From Tabrizicola sp. (GTDB taxonomy: Bacteria > Pseudomonadota > Alphaproteobacteria > Rhodobacterales > Rhodobacteraceae), in NCBI RefSeq assembly GCF_016793705.1, contig NZ_JAEULO010000043.1, positions 351 through 64,350 on the forward strand: a stretch of DNA of 64,000 nucleotides. Direction: 5' to 3'. Below the pieces are notes generated by a model, which searched no databases, had not been told where the DNA came from, and saw only the letters and a program-made list of their open reading frames with translations. This document shows positions 1-50,368 of the stretch, one piece after another. Position 1 is the stretch's first letter. Every line of letters starts with the position of its first letter. Made by a program: the position numbers and the translations under genes.

Positions 1-1488
1 AGCTTCGGCATCGTCCAGGCCACCCTCGACGCCAGCGCACAGATGCTGGCCGACTTCCCGCAAACTTCCCACATCCTCCTTGCCTCCGGCTCCTGCCTGC
101 CGATCCGGCCCGTCCGCGCGCTACAGGCCCACCTCGCCCAGCACCCCGACACCGACTTCATCGAAAGCGTTACCACGGCGGACGTCGGCTGGACCGTCGG
201 CGGCCTCAACGAAGAGCGCTTTACCCTCCGCTTCCCCTTCTCCTGGAAACGCCAGCGCAGGCTCTTCGACGGCTACGTCACCCTGCAACGCACGCTGCGC
301 TTCCGCCGCCGTATCCCGCAGGGCCTCGTCCCGCATCTCGGCAGCCAATGGTGGTGCCTGACCCGCCCCACCCTGCAAGCCATCCTGAACCACCCTGACC
401 GCCCCGCGCTGGACCGCTACTTCCGCCGTGTCTGGATTCCCGACGAAAGCTACTTCCAAAGCCTCGTCCGCCAGGTTTCCACCCGGATCGAAAGCCGCTC
501 GCTCACGCTCTCCAAATTCGACTACCAGGGCCGCCCCTACACCTTCTACGACGACCACCTGCACCTTCTGCGCCAGACCGACGCCTTCCTCGCCCGCAAG
601 ATCTGGCCCCAGGCCGACCTCCTCTACCGCACCTTCCTGACGCCCGACGGCGACCGGACGCTGGAGCCCAACCCCGGCAAGATCAACCGCCTCTTCGCCA
701 AGGCGGTCGAGCGCCGCGTCAAGGGCCGCCCCGGCCTTTACATGCAAAGCCGTTTCCCGATCCGCGCCCGCGGCGGCACCCTTTCCGCCGCGCCCTACGG
801 CGTGTTCTCCGGCTTCGCCGAGCTGTTCCACGACTTCCAGCCCTGGCTTCAACGCGCGCTGGACGCCCGGGTCCACGGCCATCTCTTCGCCTTCGACCGC
901 GCCGAATTCGCCGGTGGCGAAAGCGTCTTCAAGGGTGGCCTCTCTGACAGCCCCACCTTGCGCGACTACAACCCGAAAAGCTTCCTGACCAACCTGATCT
1001 GGAACACAAGGGGCGAGACCCAGTGCTTCCAGTTCGGCCCCGCCGACGAACAGGCCATCGCCCCCTTCCTCGCCTCCGACCCCAACGCCACGATCTTCGC
1101 CGTCACCGGAGCCTTCGCCGTACCGCTCTGGCTATCGGGGCGCAGCGCCGCCGAGGTCCGCCCGGAAGCCGCGCGCTTGCAGAAGGTGGAATCCGACTTC
1201 CTGCACGAATTGAACGGGCCGGAAACCAAAGCCAATGTCCGCATCTGGTCGCTGGCCGATTTCATCGAGAACCCCGCCGAGCCGCTGGAGCAACTGGTCG
1301 ACCTTCTGAACCCCCGCGCCGCGCATCGCGTGACCGACCTGCCGCAGCTGATCCCGCTCACCGGCTTCGGCAGCTTCCTGCAAGACCTGCGCAATCAGGG
1401 GATGGCCCCGGTCCTGATGGGCGATTTCCCTTCGGACGCCGAGCTTGCCCGGCCCGACCAGCCCTTCCGCCCCCGGATCGTCCGGTAA
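1..1488 (+). CDS. Core-2/I-branching-type (GT14-like) glycosyltransferase, 5'-truncated by the window edge
   Basis: Frame is open from base 1 (SFGIVQATLDASAQML). Motifs GSQWWCLT and WIPDESYFQSL are typical of the branching-enzyme family. Confidence 0.7.
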   Translation, partial: SFGIVQATLDASAQMLADFPQTSHILLASGSCLPIRPVRALQAHLAQHPDTDFIESVTTADVGWTVGGLNEERFTLRFPFSWKRQRRLFDGYVTLQRTLRFRRRIPQGLVPHLGSQWWCLTRPTLQAILNHPDRPALDRYFRRVWIPDESYFQSLVRQVSTRIESRSLTLSKFDYQGRPYTFYDDHLHLLRQTDAFLARKIWPQADLLYRTFLTPDGDRTLEPNPGKINRLFAKAVERRVKGRPGLYMQSRFPIRARGGTLSAAPYGVFSGFAELFHDFQPWLQRALDARVHGHLFAFDRAEFAGGESVFKGGLSDSPTLRDYNPKSFLTNLIWNTRGETQCFQFGPADEQAIAPFLASDPNATIFAVTGAFAVPLWLSGRSAAEVRPEAARLQKVESDFLHELNGPETKANVRIWSLADFIENPAEPLEQLVDLLNPRAAHRVTDLPQLIPLTGFGSFLQDLRNQGMAPVLMGDFPSDAELARPDQPFRPRIVR

Positions 1489-2960: not shown

Positions 2961-3032
2961 TTAAGAAATCCCTAACGCCCGCGACCAACGCATTGATTCA
3001 GTTGAAGGATCAGAGATTGTCCACCGTGGACA
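2961..3032. repeat. Intergenic repeat copy A (IHF-consensus site plus TGTCCAC-N-GTGGACA palindrome)
   Basis: IHF-like AATCAATGCGTTG on the minus strand at 2986-2998; palindrome at 3018-3032; collinear with 32666-32737. Confidence 0.75.
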
Positions 3033-3035
3033 GGA

Positions 3036-3500
3036 TCACGCCGCCTGCGGCGCCCTTGCCTCGGTCAGGATCGCATACAGCTTCGCCGGGTCCGAATTCG
3101 CCCGCAGCTTGGCGACCACCGCCGCGTCCCGCATCGTCCGGCTGACCAGCGCCAGCGCCTTCAGGTGATCCACCCCGGAATCCTTCGGCGCGAACAGCCC
3201 GAAGACCAGATCCACCGGCTGCCGGTCGACGCTGTCATAGTCCAGGGGTTTCTCCAGCCGCAGGAAGACCCCGATGATCCCCTTCAGGTCCTCCAGCCGG
3301 GCATGGGGCAAAGCGATGCCATGCCCCACGCCGGTCGGCCCCAGCGACTCGCGCTCCTGCAGCCCGTCGATCGCCGCCGCTCCGCTCAGGCCATAGGCCT
3401 GCGCCGCGATCTCGCCCAGCTCCTGGAACAGCCGCTTCTTCGAGGTGAATTGCCCGACAACCCGAACGGCCCCCGGGGTAAGTAGCTTCGATAGTTCCAT
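3036..3500 (-). CDS. ptsN: PTS EIIA(Ntr)
   Basis: RESLGPTGVGHGIALPHAR phosphorylation motif; follows hpf. Confidence 0.95.
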   Translation of the reverse strand: MELSKLLTPGAVRVVGQFTSKKRLFQELGEIAAQAYGLSGAAAIDGLQERESLGPTGVGHGIALPHARLEDLKGIIGVFLRLEKPLDYDSVDRQPVDLVFGLFAPKDSGVDHLKALALVSRTMRDAAVVAKLRANSDPAKLYAILTEARAPQAA

Positions 3501-40689: not shown

Positions 40690-41715
40690 TCAGCGTTGAG
40701 GGATGTTTTCACGAAGGATGATCCGTGGCTCGATGTTCTTCAGCAGAAGATGCGGGGCGGTGGTGGCGATCGCTCCCAAAAGGCGGATGACCGCTTGTTC
40801 GCCCACCAGCTGCACATTCTGGTCGATGACCACATCGATCACTCCGTCTGCAAGCCAGGCATGGGTGCGGTCGGTCAAGTCGTGCATGACGACAACAGGG
40901 CGGCGCGGGGGCCGGACCTCCTCCAGCGCGGCGACGATCCCCGTGCGTCCGGCGCCCACGCAATAGACGCCCGCAAGGTCTGGGGTGCCGCGCAAGAGCT
41001 GGGTCATCGCCACGCGGGTACGGTCACTGCGCTCGCCTGTCTCGATGGGAGGCAACAAGGACAGCGAGGGGAAATCGCGTTCCAGGACGGCGCGAAATCC
41101 GGTCTCGCGGCCCTGATGGCCATCATAGGCGCGCGACCCCATGAAAAGCCCGATGGCTCCGCCAGCGCTGCCTGCCATACGCCCCATCAGCAGCGCCGCC
41201 GTGCGTCCCGCGACGGTGTTGTCGACGCCCACGTAGGCCGAGCGGCCCGAGTCCGGGACGTCGGAGGCAATCGTCACGACCCGCACTCCGGCCTCGCAGA
41301 CGCGGCGGATCGCTTCACGCGATCTTGGGTGGTCGGCGGCGACGAGACCGATGCCGCTGGTGCGCAGGCCAACCGTTTCCAGCGCGGGCAGCAGGGATTC
41401 CGGCCCGAACCCGTCCAGCGTGCGAATATTGCACGAGGCGACCAGCGGGACCGTCGCCGCAAAGCGCCGGATGCCGTTGACCAGTTCGCCCATGAAGCCG
41501 TTCTGCACCATCGGAATGAAGAATTCGAGATGCACGGGACGCGACGGCAGCGTGACCATTCCCTCGACGGGAAGGTAGCCAAGGTCGCGCGCCGCCTGCA
41601 TCACACGATGGCGATTGGCCGCGGCCACTCCGGCGCGACCGTTCAGCACCCGGTCGACCGTCGCGGTCGAAACCCCGGCGCGTCTGGCGATGTCGACGAT
41701 GGTGGACCGGCCCAT
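40690..41715 (-). CDS. LacI-family transcriptional regulator
   Basis: TIVDIARRAGVSTATVDRVLNGR HTH; divergent from the ABC operon. Start re-assigned. Confidence 0.92.
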   Translation of the reverse strand: MGRSTIVDIARRAGVSTATVDRVLNGRAGVAAANRHRVMQAARDLGYLPVEGMVTLPSRPVHLEFFIPMVQNGFMGELVNGIRRFAATVPLVASCNIRTLDGFGPESLLPALETVGLRTSGIGLVAADHPRSREAIRRVCEAGVRVVTIASDVPDSGRSAYVGVDNTVAGRTAALLMGRMAGSAGGAIGLFMGSRAYDGHQGRETGFRAVLERDFPSLSLLPPIETGERSDRTRVAMTQLLRGTPDLAGVYCVGAGRTGIVAALEEVRPPRRPVVVMHDLTDRTHAWLADGVIDVVIDQNVQLVGEQAVIRLLGAIATTAPHLLLKNIEPRIILRENIPQR

Positions 41716-42031
41716 GCGCGGCAGCCTAGAGCCGGATGGGCGGGCTGTCACGGCATTGCTGATGGAATCTGATGTGAACTGCGGTTGCGGCAATCTGTCG
41801 CATCGCCCAAGCTGACCCCATCCGGCGTGGCCTCGTTCAGACGGGCCGCACCGGAAAGCGGCTGCTTCAGGAGGGATGCAGGCCGACTGCCCGACCAGAG
41901 CAAGAACGAGACTGCGACGCGAATTTCGCTGCGGCCCCGATGGGTGGCAAGCTGTCGTGCCGCTGAGAGAACGACCGGCCTGGCCGGAAACCGGGTCAGA
42001 CGACCCAAGGGTCACAAGGAGGAAACCCACG

Positions 42032-42961
42032 ATGATCAAGACGTTGCTTGGCGCCGCCGCTGCGCTTGCCCTGACCGCCGGTCTCGCCGCGGCCGAGGGC
42101 AAGACCTTTTACTGGGTGTCGCATGGCGGCCCGGCCGACCCGGTCTGGACCTATTTCCTGCAAGGCGCCGAGGCCTATGCCAAGACCTCCGGCAACACCG
42201 TCAACACCTCCTTCCACTCGGGCGATGTCCCGAGCCAGCAGGAAGCCGTGCGCGCGGCCATCGCGGCAGGGGCCGACGGCATCTGCTCGACCAGCCCCGA
42301 CCCGGGCTCGATGGTCGATGTGGTGGCCGAGGCCCGGGCTGCGGGTATCCCGATCATCAACTTCAACACCTCGGATTCTGCGCCGAACTGGAATGCCTAT
42401 GTGGGCGGCGACCTGAAGGCCGTGGGCAAGGCCTGGGCGCAGTATCTGGTGGATCATGAGCTGGTGAAGGCTGGCGACTTCGTCTGGATGCCGGTCGAAG
42501 TACCGGGCGCCTCCTACGGCGTTGAGGAGGAAGCCGGGATCAAGGAGGTCTTCGAGCCTCTGGGCATCACCTGGGAAGTCACCGACGCGACGCTGGACCA
42601 GGCCGAGGTGATCACCCGGATGACCGACTACGTCACCGCCAACCGCGACAAGATCAAGGCGATGATCGGCCTTGGCGACATGGTGACCGGATCGGTCAAG
42701 CGGGTCTGGGATCAGGCGGGCGTGCAGCCCGGTGAAATCCCGGTGGTCGGCTGGGGCAACTCGCTCGACACCACGCAAGAGGTGATGGACGGCTATGTAA
42801 ATGCCGGCATGTGGCAGGATCCGCAGGCCACATCGTATCTCTGCCTTTCGGCGCTGCAGATGGAAGGCGACGGCATTCCGCTTGGCTTCAACATCATCAC
42901 TGGCGCGCTCTACGAAAAGGATACGGCGCCGGTCTATTCCAAGATCATGGGCGGCAACTGA
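42032..42961 (+). CDS. Sugar/polyol ABC substrate-binding protein
   Basis: Signal peptide; type I periplasmic binding fold motifs; AGGAGG RBS. Confidence 0.88.
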   Translation: MIKTLLGAAAALALTAGLAAAEGKTFYWVSHGGPADPVWTYFLQGAEAYAKTSGNTVNTSFHSGDVPSQQEAVRAAIAAGADGICSTSPDPGSMVDVVAEARAAGIPIINFNTSDSAPNWNAYVGGDLKAVGKAWAQYLVDHELVKAGDFVWMPVEVPGASYGVEEEAGIKEVFEPLGITWEVTDATLDQAEVITRMTDYVTANRDKIKAMIGLGDMVTGSVKRVWDQAGVQPGEIPVVGWGNSLDTTQEVMDGYVNAGMWQDPQATSYLCLSALQMEGDGIPLGFNIITGALYEKDTAPVYSKIMGGN

Positions 42962-43054
42962 CGCAGGGTTCCTGCACAGTCGGACCGTGACCTTGCCGAA
43001 ACCGCCCGCAGCGATTGCGGGCGGCCCCGGCATCCCTTTCCCCGAGGAACCAGA

Positions 43055-44074
43055 ATGTCCAACCCGTCAACGGTTTCAGCCGTCCATCCCGCCGAGCCGG
43101 GTATCCTGAAGCGCTTCATCGCCAAGCCGGAGTTCGGGCCGCTTGTGCTTCTGGTGGCGATGGTTGTCGTCTTCACCGCGATCAACCCGACGTTCATGTC
43201 ACTGAACAACATCGGCAACGCCCTGACCTTCACCGTCGAGCTGGGGCTGATCGCGCTGGCGATGACGCTTCTGATGACGGCGGGCGAATTCGACCTGTCG
43301 GTTGGGTCGGTCTTCGGATTTGCGCCGGTGGTGATGTGGGCCTTCTTCAACGCCGGGCTGATGCCCCTGCCCGCAGCCTTTCTGGTGGCCATGCTGATCG
43401 CGCTGGGGATCGGGCTTTTCTCCGGCCTCTTCGTCACCCGGCTGGGCATTCCGTCCTTCCTCGTTACGCTGGGGATGCTGCTGGTCGTGCGCGGCGCGGC
43501 CCTTTGGCTGACCTCGGGCTTCCCGCAGCGCACCTGGGACGCGGGCGACCAGTGGCTTGCCAAGCTTCTGGTCGGTGACTTCTACGTGGGCGGTCTGCGC
43601 ATCTACATGAGCCTGATCTGGTTCATCGTCCTGGCGGTGATCTTCCACTACGTCCTGACCCGCACCAGGTTCGGCAACTGGACCCAGGCGACGGGCGGCA
43701 ATCCTGGTGCTGCGCGCAACCGGGGCGTGCCGATCCAGCGGGTCAAGGTGATCCTGTTCATGCTCTCCTCGGCCATGGCGGCGCTGGCCGGGATCATCTC
43801 GTCCATCCGGGTCTCGGCGGCGAACCCGAACTCCGGCACCGGCTACGAGCTGGAGGTCATCGCCATGGTGGTGATCGGCGGCACGGTGCTGACCGGCGGG
43901 CGCGGCACGATCATCGGCACGGTTCTGGGGGTGCTGATCCTGAGGCTGATGCGCAATGGCATCGTCCTGATCGGGGTTCCCGGGCTGGCCTACAACATCT
44001 TCATCGGTGCGATCATCCTGGGGATGATGGCGCTTCATGCCGCGCTGGAACGCCGGCACAACGCGGGGACCTGA
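43055..44074 (+). CDS. Sugar ABC permease (RbsC-like)
   Basis: GEFDLSVGS, IPSFLVTLG, ELEVIAMVVIGGT. Confidence 0.92.
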   Translation: MSNPSTVSAVHPAEPGILKRFIAKPEFGPLVLLVAMVVVFTAINPTFMSLNNIGNALTFTVELGLIALAMTLLMTAGEFDLSVGSVFGFAPVVMWAFFNAGLMPLPAAFLVAMLIALGIGLFSGLFVTRLGIPSFLVTLGMLLVVRGAALWLTSGFPQRTWDAGDQWLAKLLVGDFYVGGLRIYMSLIWFIVLAVIFHYVLTRTRFGNWTQATGGNPGAARNRGVPIQRVKVILFMLSSAMAALAGIISSIRVSAANPNSGTGYELEVIAMVVIGGTVLTGGRGTIIGTVLGVLILRLMRNGIVLIGVPGLAYNIFIGAIILGMMALHAALERRHNAGT

Positions 44075-44076
44075 GC

Positions 44077-44829
44077 ATGAGCGACGAATCTCTTGTCGAG
44101 ATGCGGCATATCGAAAAGTCCTATGGCCGCGTCCATGCCTTGCGCGACGTGAACCTGACGATCCGGAGGGGCGAGATCGTCGGCCTTCTGGGCGACAACG
44201 GCGCCGGGAAATCCACGCTGATCAAGGTGCTTTCGGGTGCGGTGCCCTATACGTCGGGTGAGATCCGCATCAAGGGCAAGCCGGTCAGGATGACCTCGAC
44301 CAACGATGCCATTGCTGCGGGGATCGAGACGATCTACCAGGATTCGGCGCTGGTGCCTCAGCTTTCCATCGCGCGGAACCTGTTCTTGGGGCGCGAGCTG
44401 ACCTCGGGCCATCTGGGGCGACTGGACCTCGACCGGATGAATGAGGTCGCGGCGGACCTGTTGAAGCGGGTGGGCATCTCGAAGAACATCCCGCCCACCA
44501 CGCCCATCGGCTCGCTGTCGGGTGGCGAGCGGCAGGCGGTGGCCATCGCCCGCGCAATGTATTTCGACAGCGACCTGATCATCCTGGACGAGCCGACCAA
44601 CAACCTGGGTGTGGCCGAGACCCAGGGCGTCCTCCGCTTCGTCCGCGAGGCGCGGGACACCGGGCATTCCTGCATCTTCATCGCCCACAACATCCACCAC
44701 GTCTTCCAGGTGGTGGACCGCATGGTGGTGATGCGGCGGGGGACGGTCGTGGCGGATGACCTGAGCCCGAAAACCTCTTCGATCCAGGATGTCGAGGACG
44801 TGATCACCGGGGACCATATCCTCGTCTGA
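44077..44829 (+). CDS. Sugar ABC ATPase (single domain)
   Basis: GDNGAGKST, LSGGERQ, LDEPT. Confidence 0.92.
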   Translation: MSDESLVEMRHIEKSYGRVHALRDVNLTIRRGEIVGLLGDNGAGKSTLIKVLSGAVPYTSGEIRIKGKPVRMTSTNDAIAAGIETIYQDSALVPQLSIARNLFLGRELTSGHLGRLDLDRMNEVAADLLKRVGISKNIPPTTPIGSLSGGERQAVAIARAMYFDSDLIILDEPTNNLGVAETQGVLRFVREARDTGHSCIFIAHNIHHVFQVVDRMVVMRRGTVVADDLSPKTSSIQDVEDVITGDHILV

Positions 44830-44876
44830 GATTGCTTTGATTGGCCGAGGTGGTCCGCCAGCGGAAAGGAGAAGAC

Positions 44877-45905
44877 ATGCGCGCGCTCTACGATCCTGCT
44901 CCCCGCGCGACGGACGAGATCTTCTCGCCCGAAGAGCTTGCCGTTCTGCGGTCGCGCTACGAGGTGACGGAGTGGCAGGGCGAGGATCGGGAGGCCTTCT
45001 ATGCAGAGCACTTGCCGAAGACCGAAATCCTGATCTCGCAGCAGCCGATGGAGTCGGGGCGGCTGGCAATGGCGCCGAAGCTGCGGGCGATCTTCAACGT
45101 CGAGACAAACTTCCTGCCGAACGTGGACTATGCCGAATGCTTCCGGCGCGGCATCCACGTCCTTGCCCCCGGCGCGGTCTTCGCCGCCCCGGTGGCCGAG
45201 ATGGCGCTTGGCATGGCGCTGTCGCTGGCGCGGAACATTCACGGCGAACACGCGGCCTTCCTGACGGGGCAGGAGAAGTGGTTGTTCGAGGGCAACAAGC
45301 AGTCCGAGCTTCTGGCAGGATCAACGGTCGGGATCATCGGCTTTGGTGATCTGGGCCGGTCGCTTTACCGCCTGCTCGCGCCCTTCGGCTGCCGGGTGCA
45401 GGTGTTCGACCCCTGGCTGCCGCACGGTCATCTGAAGCGGCTTGGGGTGGAGCCGGTCGGCTTCGATGCACTGATGGCGGGCAACCGCTTCGTCTTCGTC
45501 ATGGCCACGATCACCACCGACAATGCCGGGATGATCGACTCACGGGCGCTGGGCCTGATGCAGCCCGGCGCAATGCTTCTGCTGATGTCACGCGCGGCAG
45601 CGGCCGATTTCGGTGCGTTGGCCGAAGCGGCTGCCTCGGGGCGCATCCGGGTGGCGACGGACGTCTTCCCGGTCGAGCCGCTGCCCAAGGACGACCCGAT
45701 CCGGGCCGTGCCGAATATGCTCTTTTCGCCCCACCGGGCCGGGGCGCTGACCTTCGCCCTGCGCGAGATCGGGACGCGGGTGCTGGAGGACATGGACCTC
45801 ATCGCCCGCGGCCTGCCGCCGGTCGCCTGCCGCCGTGCCGAGCCCGAGACGGTGGCCCGCATGCGCTCGATGCCCGTCGCCGCCACGCCAGACGAAAAGG
45901 GCTGA
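44877..45905 (+). CDS. D-isomer-specific 2-hydroxyacid dehydrogenase
   Basis: GIIGFGDLG, SR, DVFPVEP, SPHRAG. Confidence 0.85.
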   Translation: MRALYDPAPRATDEIFSPEELAVLRSRYEVTEWQGEDREAFYAEHLPKTEILISQQPMESGRLAMAPKLRAIFNVETNFLPNVDYAECFRRGIHVLAPGAVFAAPVAEMALGMALSLARNIHGEHAAFLTGQEKWLFEGNKQSELLAGSTVGIIGFGDLGRSLYRLLAPFGCRVQVFDPWLPHGHLKRLGVEPVGFDALMAGNRFVFVMATITTDNAGMIDSRALGLMQPGAMLLLMSRAAAADFGALAEAAASGRIRVATDVFPVEPLPKDDPIRAVPNMLFSPHRAGALTFALREIGTRVLEDMDLIARGLPPVACRRAEPETVARMRSMPVAATPDEKG

Positions 45906-45909
45906 GGCG

Positions 45910-47097
45910 ATGGCGGAGCTGTTCGGCGAATCCCTGACGCGGGACGACATCCGGAGGCGGTCGGGCCAGCTTGCGGCCTATGGTGGCGTGCGATTGATGG
46001 AGCTGGCCGATGGCACCGAGCGCGGCATCCGGCTGCTGGAGTTCCGCACCGGGGCGGGCCTGCGCTTCACGGTGCTGGTCGACCGTGCGATGGATATTGC
46101 CGAGGTGGATTGGCGCGGTGCCTCGCTGGGCTGGCACGGGCCTTCGGGGCTGCGGTCGGCGGCCCTGCACGAACCGGAAGGCGAAGGCGGCTTCGGCTGG
46201 GCGCGCAGCTTCACCGGCTTCCTTGTTACCTGCGGGCTGGACCATATCCTTGGCCCGGAAGAGGTGGAGGCCAGCCATTACGGCTATCCTGGTATCCGGA
46301 CCAAGCGGCACGGGCTGCATGGCCGGATCGCCAACATCCCGGCCCGGCTGACCGGCTATGGCGAAAGATGGGACGGCGACCGCTGCATCCTCTGGGCCGA
46401 GGGCGTCGTGCGGCAGGCGACGACCTTCGGCGAATACCTCGTTCTGACCCGGCGGATCGAGGCAGAGCTGGATGGCAGCGAAATCCGGCTGACGGATCGT
46501 GTGACAAACGAAGGCTTTGCGCCGACACCGCATATGTTCTTTTACCACGTCAACCTCGGCGCGCCGCTCTTGGCCGAGGGCGCGCGCTATGTTGCGCCGA
46601 TTGCCGATGTGGTCTGGGCCGCCCATGCGGCGCGCTATCGCGACCAGGGCACCGGCTATGCGGTGGTCCCGGCCCCGCAGGACCGGTTCGTGGAGCAGGT
46701 CTGGCAGCACGAAACCGCGCCGGACGCGGGGGGCGAGGTGCCGGTGGCGCTGATGAACGACCGGCTGGGGCTGGGCCTTCAGGTCACGACCCGCAAGGAC
46801 CAACTGCCCTGCCTGTACGAATGGCAGCATTTCCAGGCCGGGGCCTACGGCTTTGGCATCGAACCCTCGACCCACCATGTCCTTGGAGACAACGCCGCGC
46901 GAGAGCGAGGAGAGATGACCTGGCTGAAAGCGGGCGAGGAGCGCCGCTACGACGCCCGTTTCACCGTTCTGGACGGAGCGGCGACGCTGGGCAAGGCCGA
47001 GGCCCGCATCCGCGCCATCATCGGGCAGCCCGACGATCCTTATCCCACCCCATCGGGCAATTTCCGCCCGCTGACCGTTCCTGCGACGATCCGATGA
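45910..47097 (+). CDS. DUF4432 / aldose-1-epimerase-like protein
   Basis: VLVDRAMDI, LVTCGLDH, LHGRIAN, YHVNLG, GIEP. Confidence 0.8.
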   Translation: MAELFGESLTRDDIRRRSGQLAAYGGVRLMELADGTERGIRLLEFRTGAGLRFTVLVDRAMDIAEVDWRGASLGWHGPSGLRSAALHEPEGEGGFGWARSFTGFLVTCGLDHILGPEEVEASHYGYPGIRTKRHGLHGRIANIPARLTGYGERWDGDRCILWAEGVVRQATTFGEYLVLTRRIEAELDGSEIRLTDRVTNEGFAPTPHMFFYHVNLGAPLLAEGARYVAPIADVVWAAHAARYRDQGTGYAVVPAPQDRFVEQVWQHETAPDAGGEVPVALMNDRLGLGLQVTTRKDQLPCLYEWQHFQAGAYGFGIEPSTHHVLGDNAARERGEMTWLKAGEERRYDARFTVLDGAATLGKAEARIRAIIGQPDDPYPTPSGNFRPLTVPATIR

Positions 47098-47109
47098 CCG
47101 GAGACACCC

Positions 47110-48237
47110 ATGCCAACTGACCAGACTCTTGCCGACCGGCCCGAACCCCTTGTCGAGCGGCGCGACTATTCGCTGACCGGGCCAAGCGCGGCGCTGGCGA
47201 TCGAACGGGGGCTAGCCTCGGCCGAATGGTATCATTCCGATGTGCCGCGCAAGGTAATGAAAGAGTTGATGCAGCGCCGCGACGGACCGGCGATCCGCGA
47301 CACGCTGATCTGGCTGGGTCTTCTGGCCCTGACGGCTGCGGGCGGCATATATTTCTGGGGCAGCTGGTGGTGCGTGCCGTTCTGGGCAGTCTATGGCGTG
47401 CTGTACGGATCAGCCTGCGACAGCCGCTGGCACGAATGCGGCCATGGCACCGCCTTCCGCACGCCCTGGATGAACGATGCGGTCTACCAGATCGCCAGCT
47501 TCATGGTGATGCGCAACCCGGTGTCCTGGCGCTGGAGCCACGCCCGCCACCACACCGACACGATCATCGTCGGCCGCGATGCCGAGATCGCCTTCATGCA
47601 TCCGGCCTCGATCCTGCTGAACATCCTGCATTTCATCGGGATTGTGGACATCTGGCAGTGGATGAAGGTGCTGGTCCGCAACGCCGCAGGCCACCTCACC
47701 CCGGACGAGCGCGACTACATCCCCGAGGCCGAAGTCGGCAAGGCGATCTTCTGGGCCCGGGTGCATGTGGCCATCTATGCCCTGACCCTGGCGGCGGCGA
47801 TCTACTGGCGCACGATCCTGCCCTTCATGCTGATCGGCGGGCCGCGTATCTATGGCGCGTGGCACATGTTCATGACGGGCATGATCCAGCATGGCGGGCT
47901 GGCAGAGGATGTGCTCGACCACCGGCTGAACAGCCGCACCTGCCTGATGAACCCGGTCAGCCGCTGGATCTACTGGAATATGAACTACCATGTGGAGCAT
48001 CATATGTTCCCGATGGTGCCTTACCATGCGCTGCCGCGCCTGCATGAGGTCATCAGGAACGACCTGCCTGCGCCGACCCGCTCGATCCCGGCGGCCTTTG
48101 CCGAGATGGTGCCCGCGATCCTGCGCCAGCGGCGCGAGAAGGGATATTTCCTGAAAAAGACCCTGCCGCCGACCGCGCGCGCCTACCGCGAGGAGCTGCA
48201 CCAGACCATCCCCCACCGTGACGGACTGAAGGAGTGA
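47110..48237 (+). CDS. Membrane di-iron oxygenase, MocD-like (fatty-acid-desaturase superfamily)
   Basis: His boxes HECGH, HARHH, HVEHH; adjacent Rieske ferredoxin. Confidence 0.85.
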   Translation: MPTDQTLADRPEPLVERRDYSLTGPSAALAIERGLASAEWYHSDVPRKVMKELMQRRDGPAIRDTLIWLGLLALTAAGGIYFWGSWWCVPFWAVYGVLYGSACDSRWHECGHGTAFRTPWMNDAVYQIASFMVMRNPVSWRWSHARHHTDTIIVGRDAEIAFMHPASILLNILHFIGIVDIWQWMKVLVRNAAGHLTPDERDYIPEAEVGKAIFWARVHVAIYALTLAAAIYWRTILPFMLIGGPRIYGAWHMFMTGMIQHGGLAEDVLDHRLNSRTCLMNPVSRWIYWNMNYHVEHHMFPMVPYHALPRLHEVIRNDLPAPTRSIPAAFAEMVPAILRQRREKGYFLKKTLPPTARAYREELHQTIPHRDGLKE

Positions 48238-48242
48238 CCGCG

Positions 48243-48557
48243 ATGCAATGGGTTTCCGCCTGCGCCCTGGACGACATCGACCCCGAGGACCTGGTCCGCT
48301 TCGACCACGGCGGCAGGACCTATGCGATCTACCGCGATGAGGATGGCGCTGTCTTCGCCACCGATGGGCTTTGCACGCATGAGCAGGTGCATCTCTGCGA
48401 CGGGCTGGTGATGGGCGACGAGATCGAATGCCCCAAGCACAACGGTCGCTTCAACTACAAGACCGGCGAGGCCGAACGACTGCCTTGCGTGACCACGCTC
48501 AGGACCCATCCGGCGCGTGTGGTGGGCGAGATGATCGAGATCGGGCTGGAGGACTGA
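48243..48557 (+). CDS. Rieske [2Fe-2S] ferredoxin, MocE-like
   Basis: CTHEQVHL and ECPKHNGRF. Confidence 0.9.
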   Translation: MQWVSACALDDIDPEDLVRFDHGGRTYAIYRDEDGAVFATDGLCTHEQVHLCDGLVMGDEIECPKHNGRFNYKTGEAERLPCVTTLRTHPARVVGEMIEIGLED

Positions 48558-48558
48558 C

Positions 48559-49392
48559 ATGGCACGTACCCGCCCGACCGTTGCCGACCTGCGCGCCTGG
48601 AAGGGCAAGCGGCAGCTGACCATGCTGCGCCTCTTCACCCTCGACGAGGCCGCCGCCGCCGAAGAGGCCGGGATCGACCTGGTCTCGATTCCGCCGGATC
48701 TCGTGCTGGATCCGGAATACCGCAAGGTTGCACCCACGCTCTTCTCGATGTCGGGCATGGATCACCTTGGTGCGGGCACGCGGGAGGATTACCTGCGGCT
48801 TTGCGGCAAGCTGCTCTCCGCCGGGGCCGACGCGATGTATTGCTCGGCCAGCATCGACACCGTGCGCTATCTGGCGTCCGAGCATATCCCGGTGGTCGGC
48901 CATGTCGGCCTTGTCCCCAGCCGCGCCACCTGGACCGGCGGCTTCCGCGCTGTGGGCAAGACGGCGGATCAGGCGCTGGCGCTTTATAGGGAATGTCTGG
49001 CCTATGAGGCAGCCGGTGCGTTCGCGGTCGAGATCGAGGTCGTGCCCGAAGAAGTCGCAACCGAAATCAGCCACCGGATGAAGCAACTGCTTCTGTGGTC
49101 GATGGGGTCCGGGGCAGGCTGCGATGCGCAATACCTGTTTGCCATGGATATCCTGGGTGAGCATCGGGGAAAGATGCCCCGTCACTCCAAAGTTTACCGC
49201 GACTTTGCGGCGGAGTACGACCGCCTCCAGCGCGAGAGGGTGGCGGCCTTCACCGAATTCCGCACGGATGTTGAGACCGGCCGCTTCCCGGAGGCCCGCT
49301 TCACGCTGCACATGGTGCCCGAGGAACTGGCAAGGTTCAGTTCGGCGCTGGAGCAAGAGGGTATCGGGGCGGAAAGCACCGGCGAAACCTGA
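48559..49392 (+). CDS. Divergent PanB-like (ketopantoate hydroxymethyltransferase fold) protein
   Basis: PVVGHVGLVP, GGFRAVGK, VEIEVVP and GSGAGCDAQ are retained; LVGDS, ADLPF and VKIEG are absent. Confidence 0.8.
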   Translation: MARTRPTVADLRAWKGKRQLTMLRLFTLDEAAAAEEAGIDLVSIPPDLVLDPEYRKVAPTLFSMSGMDHLGAGTREDYLRLCGKLLSAGADAMYCSASIDTVRYLASEHIPVVGHVGLVPSRATWTGGFRAVGKTADQALALYRECLAYEAAGAFAVEIEVVPEEVATEISHRMKQLLLWSMGSGAGCDAQYLFAMDILGEHRGKMPRHSKVYRDFAAEYDRLQRERVAAFTEFRTDVETGRFPEARFTLHMVPEELARFSSALEQEGIGAESTGET

Positions 49393-49469
49393 CTCTTGCG
49401 TCGCGGGAGAGACGACCTTCTCGTCCGCATATCCGATGCTCAGCTGCGTCGCATATGGCTTCTGTCGGC

Positions 49470-50138
49470 TCAGGCCGCGACCAGCCGCAATATCGTATCG
49501 ATGTTGAAGTGGAGCCGCTCCTCCAGCGCCTCCTTGGTCATGAGGTCGCGCTCGAACACGATGGATCCGGTGAAACGGTTCGTCAGATAGTAATAGCCGA
49601 TGGCGGCGACCGTGATGTTCAACTGCACCGGGTCGACGCCCTTGCGGAAGACGCCCGCGGCAACACCGCGTTCGAGGATCGACTGAACCATCGAGACGAA
49701 TCGGCGGCTGTAGTCCTTCACCGTTTCCGACTTCTTCAGATGCTTGGCGCGGTGCAGGTTCTCGCTGTTCACCAGTGTGATGAATTCCGGGTTCTTCAGG
49801 TAATAGTCCCAGGTGAATCGGACCAGGCGTTCCAGGGCCTCGCGCGGGTCCAGATGGTCGAGATTCAGCTTCTGCTCCGCGATGCGGATATCGAGATAAG
49901 CGTTTTCCAGCACGGTCTGGAACAAGCGTTCTTTCGAATCGAAGTAGTGATAGATCATCCGTTTGTTTGCGCGCGCCTTCTCGGCGATCACGTCCACCCG
50001 CGCGCCGCCCAGGCCGCTCTTTGCAAATTCGCGCTTCGCGGCCTCCAGGATGCGGGCCTTTGTCGCCTCTGCATCCCGGATGCGCGGTTTCTGGGCAGGC
50101 TTCGCCTTCCCTTGGGCTGTGTTCTCACTGGCGTCCAT
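49470..50138 (-). CDS. TetR-family regulator (RutR-like C-domain)
   Basis: ILEAAKREFAKSGLGGARVDVIA, MIYHYF. Start re-assigned to 50138. Confidence 0.92.
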   Translation of the reverse strand: MDASENTAQGKAKPAQKPRIRDAEATKARILEAAKREFAKSGLGGARVDVIAEKARANKRMIYHYFDSKERLFQTVLENAYLDIRIAEQKLNLDHLDPREALERLVRFTWDYYLKNPEFITLVNSENLHRAKHLKKSETVKDYSRRFVSMVQSILERGVAAGVFRKGVDPVQLNITVAAIGYYYLTNRFTGSIVFERDLMTKEALEERLHFNIDTILRLVAA

Positions 50139-50256
50139 CAATCCACTCCCAGGGCATCGGTTTTTGCCGCCTGCGGCGCTGATCCCCTGCCTGCGACCAA
50201 AGCCCGCACTGTTGCAGGTTGCAACAAACATCTTGACTCGGGGGTCAGCTGTCAAG

Positions 50257-50275
50257 TAACCAGTTAGTGCATTAA
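50257..50275 (+). promoter_or_regulatory. Candidate operator/promoter motif copy 1
   Basis: TAACCAGTTAGTGCATTAA. Confidence 0.6.
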
Positions 50276-50368
50276 CGGAGAGGCGTGCGCTGATGACGCA
50301 GGTGTCCGCCCCCGCCGAAGGCAGGGCCACGCTTCCGTGGCATTGGAGTGGAAAAAGGGAGGGAATCC

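Follow-up and report, generated by a model that had tools for sequence, protein, structure and literature searches.

The MocD, MocE and MocF proteins form a ferredoxin-oxygenase system in the catabolism of the rhizopine 3-O-methyl-scyllo-inosamine by S. meliloti and R. leguminosarum (Bahar et al. 1998, as cited in PMC10107442 and PMC5789663). According to these citing accounts, the step in which the three proteins remove the O-methyl group of 3-O-methyl-scyllo-inosamine was defined by rhizobial genetics. PanB, the 3-methyl-2-oxobutanoate (or ketopantoate) hydroxymethyltransferase of pantothenate synthesis (EC 2.1.2.11), uses 5,10-methylene-tetrahydrofolate (5,10-methylene-THF) as its natural co-substrate, and its first half-reaction is an enolisation; both points belong to the general mechanism in the open literature. 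Relatives of both systems lie side by side in a stretch of 64,000 nucleotides (nt) from Tabrizicola sp. (assembly GCF_016793705.1, contig NZ_JAEULO010000043.1, positions 351 to 64,350 of the forward strand), referred to here as the window. Directly downstream of mocD- and mocE-like genes is a single stop-free reading frame at 48559-49392 (+), encoding a PanB-like protein of 277 amino acids (aa). This protein belongs to a PanB-fold family with a rebuilt active site which has been mis-annotated on a large scale, and it very probably acts not as PanB but as an accessory of Moc-type oxygenases.

The kinship with PanB is evident in both sequence and predicted structure. The protein matches the Pfam profile PF02548 (Pantoate_transf) with 127.6 bits, above the gathering score, the match covering profile positions 91-258 only. 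It falls below the cut-offs of the NCBIfam models TIGR00222 (88 against 207.55) and NF001452 (113.5 against 272). A sequence search of the PDB returned PanB chains only, with E-values of 1e-14 to 1e-19, through the C-terminal two thirds of the protein. The AlphaFold2 model is confident (pLDDT, the predicted local distance difference test, of 94.6), and the best Foldseek matches to it are the PanB structures 3VAV, 1M3U and 1OY0 (template modelling scores 0.66-0.74, E 1e-18), followed at greater distance by the isocitrate-lyase/PEP-mutase superfamily. The protein is thus predicted to adopt the PanB fold, a (beta/alpha)8 barrel, and presumably descends from an enzyme using 5,10-methylene-THF.

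The active site has been rebuilt within this fold. A first-pass annotation, made from the DNA alone, had compared the protein by eye with E. coli PanB. Each of its observations was reproduced by a MAFFT alignment with E. coli K-12 PanB (from NC_000913) and the canonical PanB of the same genome: LVGDS becomes SIPPD, the segment of about 20 residues said to be missing appears as a gap of 19-20 columns following SIPPD, ADLPF becomes SGMDH and VKIEG becomes MYCSA, with GHxGLxP (H115) and the catalytic-Glu segment EIEVVP (E160; LECVP in E. coli) retained. In E. coli PanB, Asp45 and Asp84 are the Mg2+ ligands, with Glu114 close by, and Ser46 and Lys112 bind the oxo-acid carboxylate. None of these residues is kept in the window protein. 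D45 is replaced by P46, D84 by G66, E114 by Ser or a gap, and K112 by Y94, a position occupied by Tyr in 78% of the family; S46 falls in a deleted column.

Conservation was counted over 37 full-length family members, 33-75% identical to the query, which were also aligned jointly with 13 canonical PanBs (50 sequences). Residues D45, S46, G48, D84, P86, F87, K112, E114 and G115/116 are invariant in the canonical proteins and variable or deleted in the family. The multiple alignment called for by the first-pass annotation therefore agrees with its reading that the metal ligands have been lost. Residues H136, E181, D209, D217, P227 and K231 are common to both groups. Nine positions are invariant in the family (G89, H115, G117, G153, E160, G185, D189, D197 and H209), H115 and E160 corresponding to E. 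coli H136 and E181, and about 20 more are at least 90% conserved, including D91, E158, R208 and F260. Some of the conserved residues are the family's own: E158 stands at canonical V179 and H209 at canonical F229. The description 'rebuilt active site' thus fits, site residues having been lost and E158, H209 and D91 gained, and the difference from PanB is systematic and not due to chance. The 'YC' pair which replaces the canonical K-I/L-E is common in the family but not invariant, and for that reason is not counted as catalytic.

An exhaustive HMMER search collected about 130 clusters at 50% identity (E<1e-30), well apart from canonical PanB and with full-length members in several phyla. A quick maximum-likelihood tree separates the family from canonical PanB by a long branch with 100% SH-aLRT support, and places the three intact PanB-like paralogues of this genome in two old subclades. 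Exact-sequence look-ups with the genome's other PanB-like paralogues gave no match. Judged from these sequences, loss of the canonical site is a trait of the whole family and not the decay of one gene.

The first-pass annotation had concluded that the protein is not a pantothenate enzyme, and to the family-wide loss of site residues and the separate clade can now be added a separate panB in the same genome and a published complementation experiment. The canonical PanB of this genome, encoded on another contig (C19), is full-length (361.7 bits, profile positions 8-258). Its gene overlaps panC in an operon, whereas the window copy adjoins no pan gene and sits in a sugar-import/oxygenase operon. 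A 'second panB' of R. etli CFN42, RHE_PE00443 on plasmid p42e, was studied by Villasenor et al. 2011 (PMC3082293); it is the only such gene located on p42e, and its product and the window protein share 58% identity across 263 residues. The R. etli panB mutant is auxotrophic despite the presence of RHE_PE00443, plasmid-expressed RHE_PE00443 gave no complementation of panB (data not shown in that paper), and a CD-search recognised 5 out of 12 active-site residues in the protein and detected no metal site (PMC3082293). Complementation of a panB mutant, the outcome which the first-pass annotation had named as speaking against its view, is therefore negative in published work on a homologue of the window protein. 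Meanwhile, RefSeq labels the PanB-like genes on NC_011366, NZ_CP092437 and NC_007765 as 3-methyl-2-oxobutanoate hydroxymethyltransferase, with the Gene Ontology (GO) term 'pantothenate biosynthetic process' (IEA). This label conflicts with the published negative complementation and is wrong.

The distribution of the family points the same way. When 61 Rhodobacteraceae genomes, each from a different genus and most of them more than 95% complete, were searched with the PF02548 profile, scores were bimodal: canonical proteins reach at least 181 bits, mostly more than 280, and paralogues 92-136 bits, with matches that cover the profile from about 67-124 onward to 258 only. Three of the 61 genomes hold only the paralogue form, and in 21 there is no PF02548 match of any kind; the presence of a PanB-like gene therefore does not track pantothenate synthesis. 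A substantial part of the Rhodobacteraceae thus seems to lack canonical PanB, which suggests pantothenate auxotrophy or another route.

The most constant neighbour of the PanB-like gene is instead that for the MocE-type Rieske ferredoxin. In the window the start of the Rieske gene overlaps the oxygenase gene by 4 nt, its stop codon lies 1 nt before the ATG of the PanB-like gene, and a GGAGGA Shine-Dalgarno sequence is placed inside its 3' end, so that the PanB-like gene is translationally coupled to the Rieske gene. All four MocE-like Rieske genes of this genome (on contigs C65, that of the window, C4, C62 and C39) are followed by a PanB-family open reading frame (ORF), and MocD lies directly upstream in three of the four sets. 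Near the set without MocD, on C62, two FA_hydroxylase (PF04116) His-box membrane proteins are encoded within 10 kb (362-748 (-) and 3019-3411 (+)), just upstream of the C62 sugar operon, together with a Pyr_redox_2 reductase near the cluster; a third FA_hydroxylase gene adjoins MocD in C4. The C39 copy (L005:1438-2046, -), directly 3' of a MocD/MocE pair, is intact for about 130 residues, to ...TWTG, and ends where a LysR-family gene on the opposite strand begins; it is likely a pseudogene remnant. The accompanying sugar enzymes vary among the genome's three clusters, with DUF4432 and 2-hydroxyacid dehydrogenase proteins in the window and GFO/IDH/MocA dehydrogenases and xylose-isomerase-like barrels in C4 and C62, whilst the MocE/PanB-like pair is constant.

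The same linkage is seen well beyond this genome. MocD and/or MocE genes lie within 3 kb of the PanB-like gene in about 21 of 41 species-representative loci. Among the 61 Rhodobacteraceae genera, 11 have both the PanB-like gene and MocD, three the PanB-like gene only, four MocD only and 43 neither (Fisher p ~1e-6, relatives being non-independent), and the two genes are adjacent in at least eight of the 11 genomes holding both. In PLSDB, 276 plasmids carry the PanB-like gene and 266, from the same genera, carry MocD. LacI and mocD-mocE-FAD reductase-panB-like genes, without sugar enzymes, make up the operon of R. etli, R. leguminosarum and S. meliloti pSymB; the rhizobial neighbours carry the RefSeq name 'MocE family 2Fe-2S type ferredoxin', and the window MocD-like protein is 62-66% identical to the rhizobial copies. 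A rhizopine-type locus on S. meliloti BL225C pSINMEB01 (792471-817246) encodes MocR (GntR-aminotransferase), MocD, MocE and MocF followed by the PanB-like protein, along with MocC/MocA/MocB-like, MosB-like (NifT+DegT) and MosC-like (MFS) proteins. Metagenome contigs (L050:5676-7949, L051, L052) encode a 757-aa fusion of FA_desaturase, Rieske and NAD_binding_1 domains, a predicted self-sufficient MocD-E-F, which is preceded by URO-D-family and B12-binding (corrinoid methyltransferase) genes and followed by the PanB-like gene. Elsewhere the neighbours include a Rieske oxygenase alpha subunit (L041) and PhyH dioxygenases (L043, L071).

As the window shows no MocF-type FAD reductase in the gene-neighbourhood annotation of 40690-50330, the PanB-like protein was considered as a substitute for it. 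This was rejected: rhizobial operons hold MocF as well as the PanB-like gene, and one homologue follows a protein with a fused reductase domain. Since the minimal rhizobial operon has no sugar enzymes, the role appears tied to the oxygenase step and not to that of a reductase stand-in. The first-pass annotation, which made no use of gene context, had proposed either new chemistry or a non-catalytic role; this choice is supported as it stands, and the neighbourhood narrows it to a role beside a MocD/MocE oxygenase.

Several unusual gene arrangements were met in the family. Apparent fusions of PanB-like segments with FA_desaturase or Pyr_redox_2 domains were rejected as Rosetta-stone evidence, the PanB-like segments being partial; they resemble artefacts of gene calling, frameshifts or contig edges, and are usable as evidence of adjacency only. 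Large ORFs upstream of distant homologues were likewise rejected as oxygenase fusions, and correspond to gyrB, PBP and Mo-hydroxylase genes. PanB-like forms of 648-687 aa have C-terminal extensions without a Pfam hit, and are probably read-through ORFs in GC-rich DNA. Three proteins of 542-547 aa (P0124, P0276, P0277) contain two tandem PanB-like domains, representing either a true fused duplication or two genes called as one. They match a tandem gene pair in a marine alphaproteobacterial single-cell genome (L043:6080-9444), where two PanB-like genes are flanked by two PhyH-type Fe/2-oxoglutarate dioxygenases, in a locus that also holds BNR/sialidase-like and MFS genes. In a metagenomic locus (L071:1021-2807) the PanB-like gene precedes a PhyH gene.

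A mechanism can be proposed for the role beside the oxygenase. MocD would hydroxylate the O-methyl group of a sugar or cyclitol to give a hemiacetal. The PanB-like protein, by means of its ancestral 5,10-methylene-THF site, would move the hydroxymethyl or formaldehyde unit onto tetrahydrofolate (THF), so that the one-carbon (C1) unit would enter the folate pool instead of escaping as free formaldehyde. An O-linked hydroxymethyl group would require no metal-stabilised enolate, which would explain the loss of the Mg2+/oxo-acid half of the site. The sugar enzymes vary and the PanB-like protein is constant, which argues for a role in the step that the clusters have in common, the removal of the methyl group. 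The spontaneous reaction in which formaldehyde condenses with THF proceeds too slowly in vivo, and an enzyme for it is not known (PMC7073904); a protein capturing the C1 unit would thus have selective value. That the PanB-like protein takes the C1 unit from oxidative O-demethylation onto THF, with folate binding and C1 transfer putative, is offered as a tentative reading, judged a little short of evenly balanced. Its stricter form, in which the family would be a putative THF-dependent C1 acceptor that docks on MocD-type O-demethylases and makes 5,10-methylene-THF directly, is advanced with more reserve still.

Other functions have been weighed against C1 capture. A fairly unlikely one is that of an enzyme acting on the sugar or cyclitol skeleton, which could be an isomerase, epimerase, dehydratase or retro-aldolase with a keto intermediate as its substrate; a relocated catalytic or metal site made up of H115, E158, E160, D189 and H209 would take the place of the Asp45/Asp84 Mg2+ site of PanB. 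The new conserved His, Glu and Asp residues do map to, or close to, the C-terminal ends of strands 5, 6 and 8 of the barrel, enolisation is already within the repertoire of PanB, keto-sugar-forming dehydrogenases occur in many clusters, and some distant members adjoin aldo-keto reductase, aldehyde dehydrogenase (ALDH) or GFO/IDH/MocA genes without an oxygenase. Yet the minimal rhizobial operon comprises only oxygenase, ferredoxin, reductase and PanB-like genes, and the complete difference in sugar enzymes among the genome's three clusters, set beside the constant MocE link, fits methyl removal better. That constancy, four cases out of four in this genome with translational coupling in addition, could also be expected of an oxygenase accessory working independently of folate, be it in docking or scaffolding, substrate delivery, hemiacetal breakdown, assembly or repair of the di-iron centre, or as a Rieske-ferredoxin-dependent metalloenzyme. 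The family-specific C-terminal helix with its conserved Phe260 could be a docking element, and a non-catalytic role was among the options of the first-pass annotation. This explanation is nevertheless thought unlikely: the catalytic-type residues at the barrel mouth (His, two Glu and two Asp) point to catalysis, such hemiacetals decompose on their own, and membrane His-box oxygenases (AlkB, desaturases) are not known to need a subunit of this type.

Far less credence is given to explanations that leave the protein with its ancestral function or with none. Decay of a functionless panB duplicate could be argued from the truncated copy in this genome and the frameshifted one in S. meliloti BL225C, but is very improbable for a family of some 130 clusters with full-length members in several phyla, nine invariant and about 20 near-invariant positions that include new ones, a confident structure model, a conserved and translationally coupled operon position and a separate, old clade. 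A working PanB isozyme has in its favour the database annotation and the Pfam domain match above the gathering score. This is the least credible of the explanations and can hardly be entertained, given that the Mg2+ and oxo-acid residues are all missing, that the NCBIfam scores are below cut-off, that the published complementation with the homologue was negative and that presence of the gene is unlinked to pantothenate synthesis.

A number of observations weigh against C1 capture itself. The demethylase activity of MocDEF, on which the proposal builds, rests on genetics and not on biochemistry. The neighbours of the modules examined, 10 of them in the rhizopine-type locus of BL225C, include no folate or C1 enzyme (FolD, PurU, GcvT). 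In the deposited sequence of that locus the PanB-like copy is split by a single frameshift at about residue 145; the gene may be dispensable there, or this may be a sequencing error. Assignment of the retained residues to a folate site is an inference, as no structure of a PanB-folate complex exists for mapping, and the new conserved His, Glu and Asp might just as well make up a relocated metal site serving another reaction. Finally, no oxygenase was found near several distant members (in Verrucomicrobiota, actinobacteria and some metagenome contigs), from which it follows that the family may have more than one role.

The operon, a closely spaced set of genes in one orientation under LacI control, is listed with its surroundings in Table 1. 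The start of the LacI-family gene is approximate because the helix-turn-helix (HTH) begins only at residue 134 of a long ORF (40690-42102). The DUF4432 gene precedes MocD in further loci (L009, L011-L013). The TetR-family gene is probably part of the next sugar cluster, which begins at about 50348.

Table 1. Genes of the PanB-like operon and flanking regulators, in window coordinates.
Feature	Position	Strand	Remarks
LacI-family regulator	40690..41703	-	divergent from operon; start approximate
Sugar-type ABC importer	41876..44829	+	binding protein 41876-42961, permease 43055-44074, ATPase 44077-44829
D-isomer-specific 2-hydroxyacid dehydrogenase	44841..45905	+	
DUF4432 protein	45835..47097	+	start uncertain (45835 or 46110)
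MocD-type membrane di-iron oxygenase	47110..48237	+	FA_desaturase family; His boxes HECGH, HARHH, HVEHH
MocE-type Rieske [2Fe-2S] ferredoxin	48234..48557	+	107 aa
PanB-like protein	48559..49392	+	277 aa; predicted PanB TIM-barrel fold without Mg2+/oxo-acid site; last gene of operon
TetR-family regulator	49470-50330	-	TetR_N + TetR_C_29; convergent on the end of the PanB-like gene

The literature search found no paper assigning a function to the PanB-like family; it did find mocDEF described without a fourth gene, and the R. etli homologue called non-functional for pantothenate synthesis (PMC3082293). The mislabelled gene occurs on rhizobial megaplasmids by the hundred, in many Rhodobacteraceae and in marine alphaproteobacteria, and its PanB label causes vitamin B5 prototrophy to be overpredicted. 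Since 1998 the Moc-type oxygenase has been regarded as having three components, and a conserved fourth one changes how the system should be reconstituted. If C1 capture proves true, it would answer the question left open in PMC7073904 of whether an enzyme exists that converts formaldehyde into 5,10-methylene-THF. The protein would then be the first known enzyme to catalyse or channel formaldehyde-THF condensation while forming a subunit of its own, and the equivalent, on the folate side, of the formaldehyde-activating enzyme (Fae). In soils and oceans it would likewise tie the folate C1 pool to the consumption of methylated sugars and cyclitols, with bacteria harvesting, and not detoxifying, the methyl carbon of methyl ethers that are abundant in plants and algae, among them pinitol, the main compound in Mimosa root exudate (PMC5789663).

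A number of parallels and differences can be drawn with the systems already described. The family shares with PanB, represented by PDB entries 1M3U, 3VAV, 1OY0 and 1O66, its TIM-barrel fold, a similar length, GHxGLxP (His136), Glu181, the GxGxG...D.Q.L...D..G block and PK/R.xK. It has lost Asp45, Ser46, Asp84, Lys112, Glu114 and a loop of about 20 residues. Its gains are conserved Glu158, His209 and Asp91, together with an insertion of 7 residues and a helix at the C-terminus. With the MocD/MocE/MocF rhizopine system the window has in common its two genes upstream of the PanB-like gene, one MocD-like and the other MocE-like. By contrast, the published model comprises three components without a PanB-like fourth gene, whereas the window operon has no MocF-type reductase and its accessory proteins are of sugar type (DUF4432, 2-hydroxyacid dehydrogenase) and not of inosamine type. 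In folate-capturing parts of demethylases, and in Fae of the tetrahydromethanopterin (H4MPT) pathway, C1 units from demethylation are trapped on a pterin carrier. The same logic is proposed here as in the THF-binding domains of dimethylglycine and sarcosine oxidases, the GcvT-family DmdA, LigM and Fae. However, the GcvT-type proteins and Fae, the latter also mentioned in PMC7073904, have folds unrelated to the PanB TIM barrel, whilst in the present family a protein of that fold, with putative folate binding, would serve as a separate subunit beside a membrane di-iron oxygenase.

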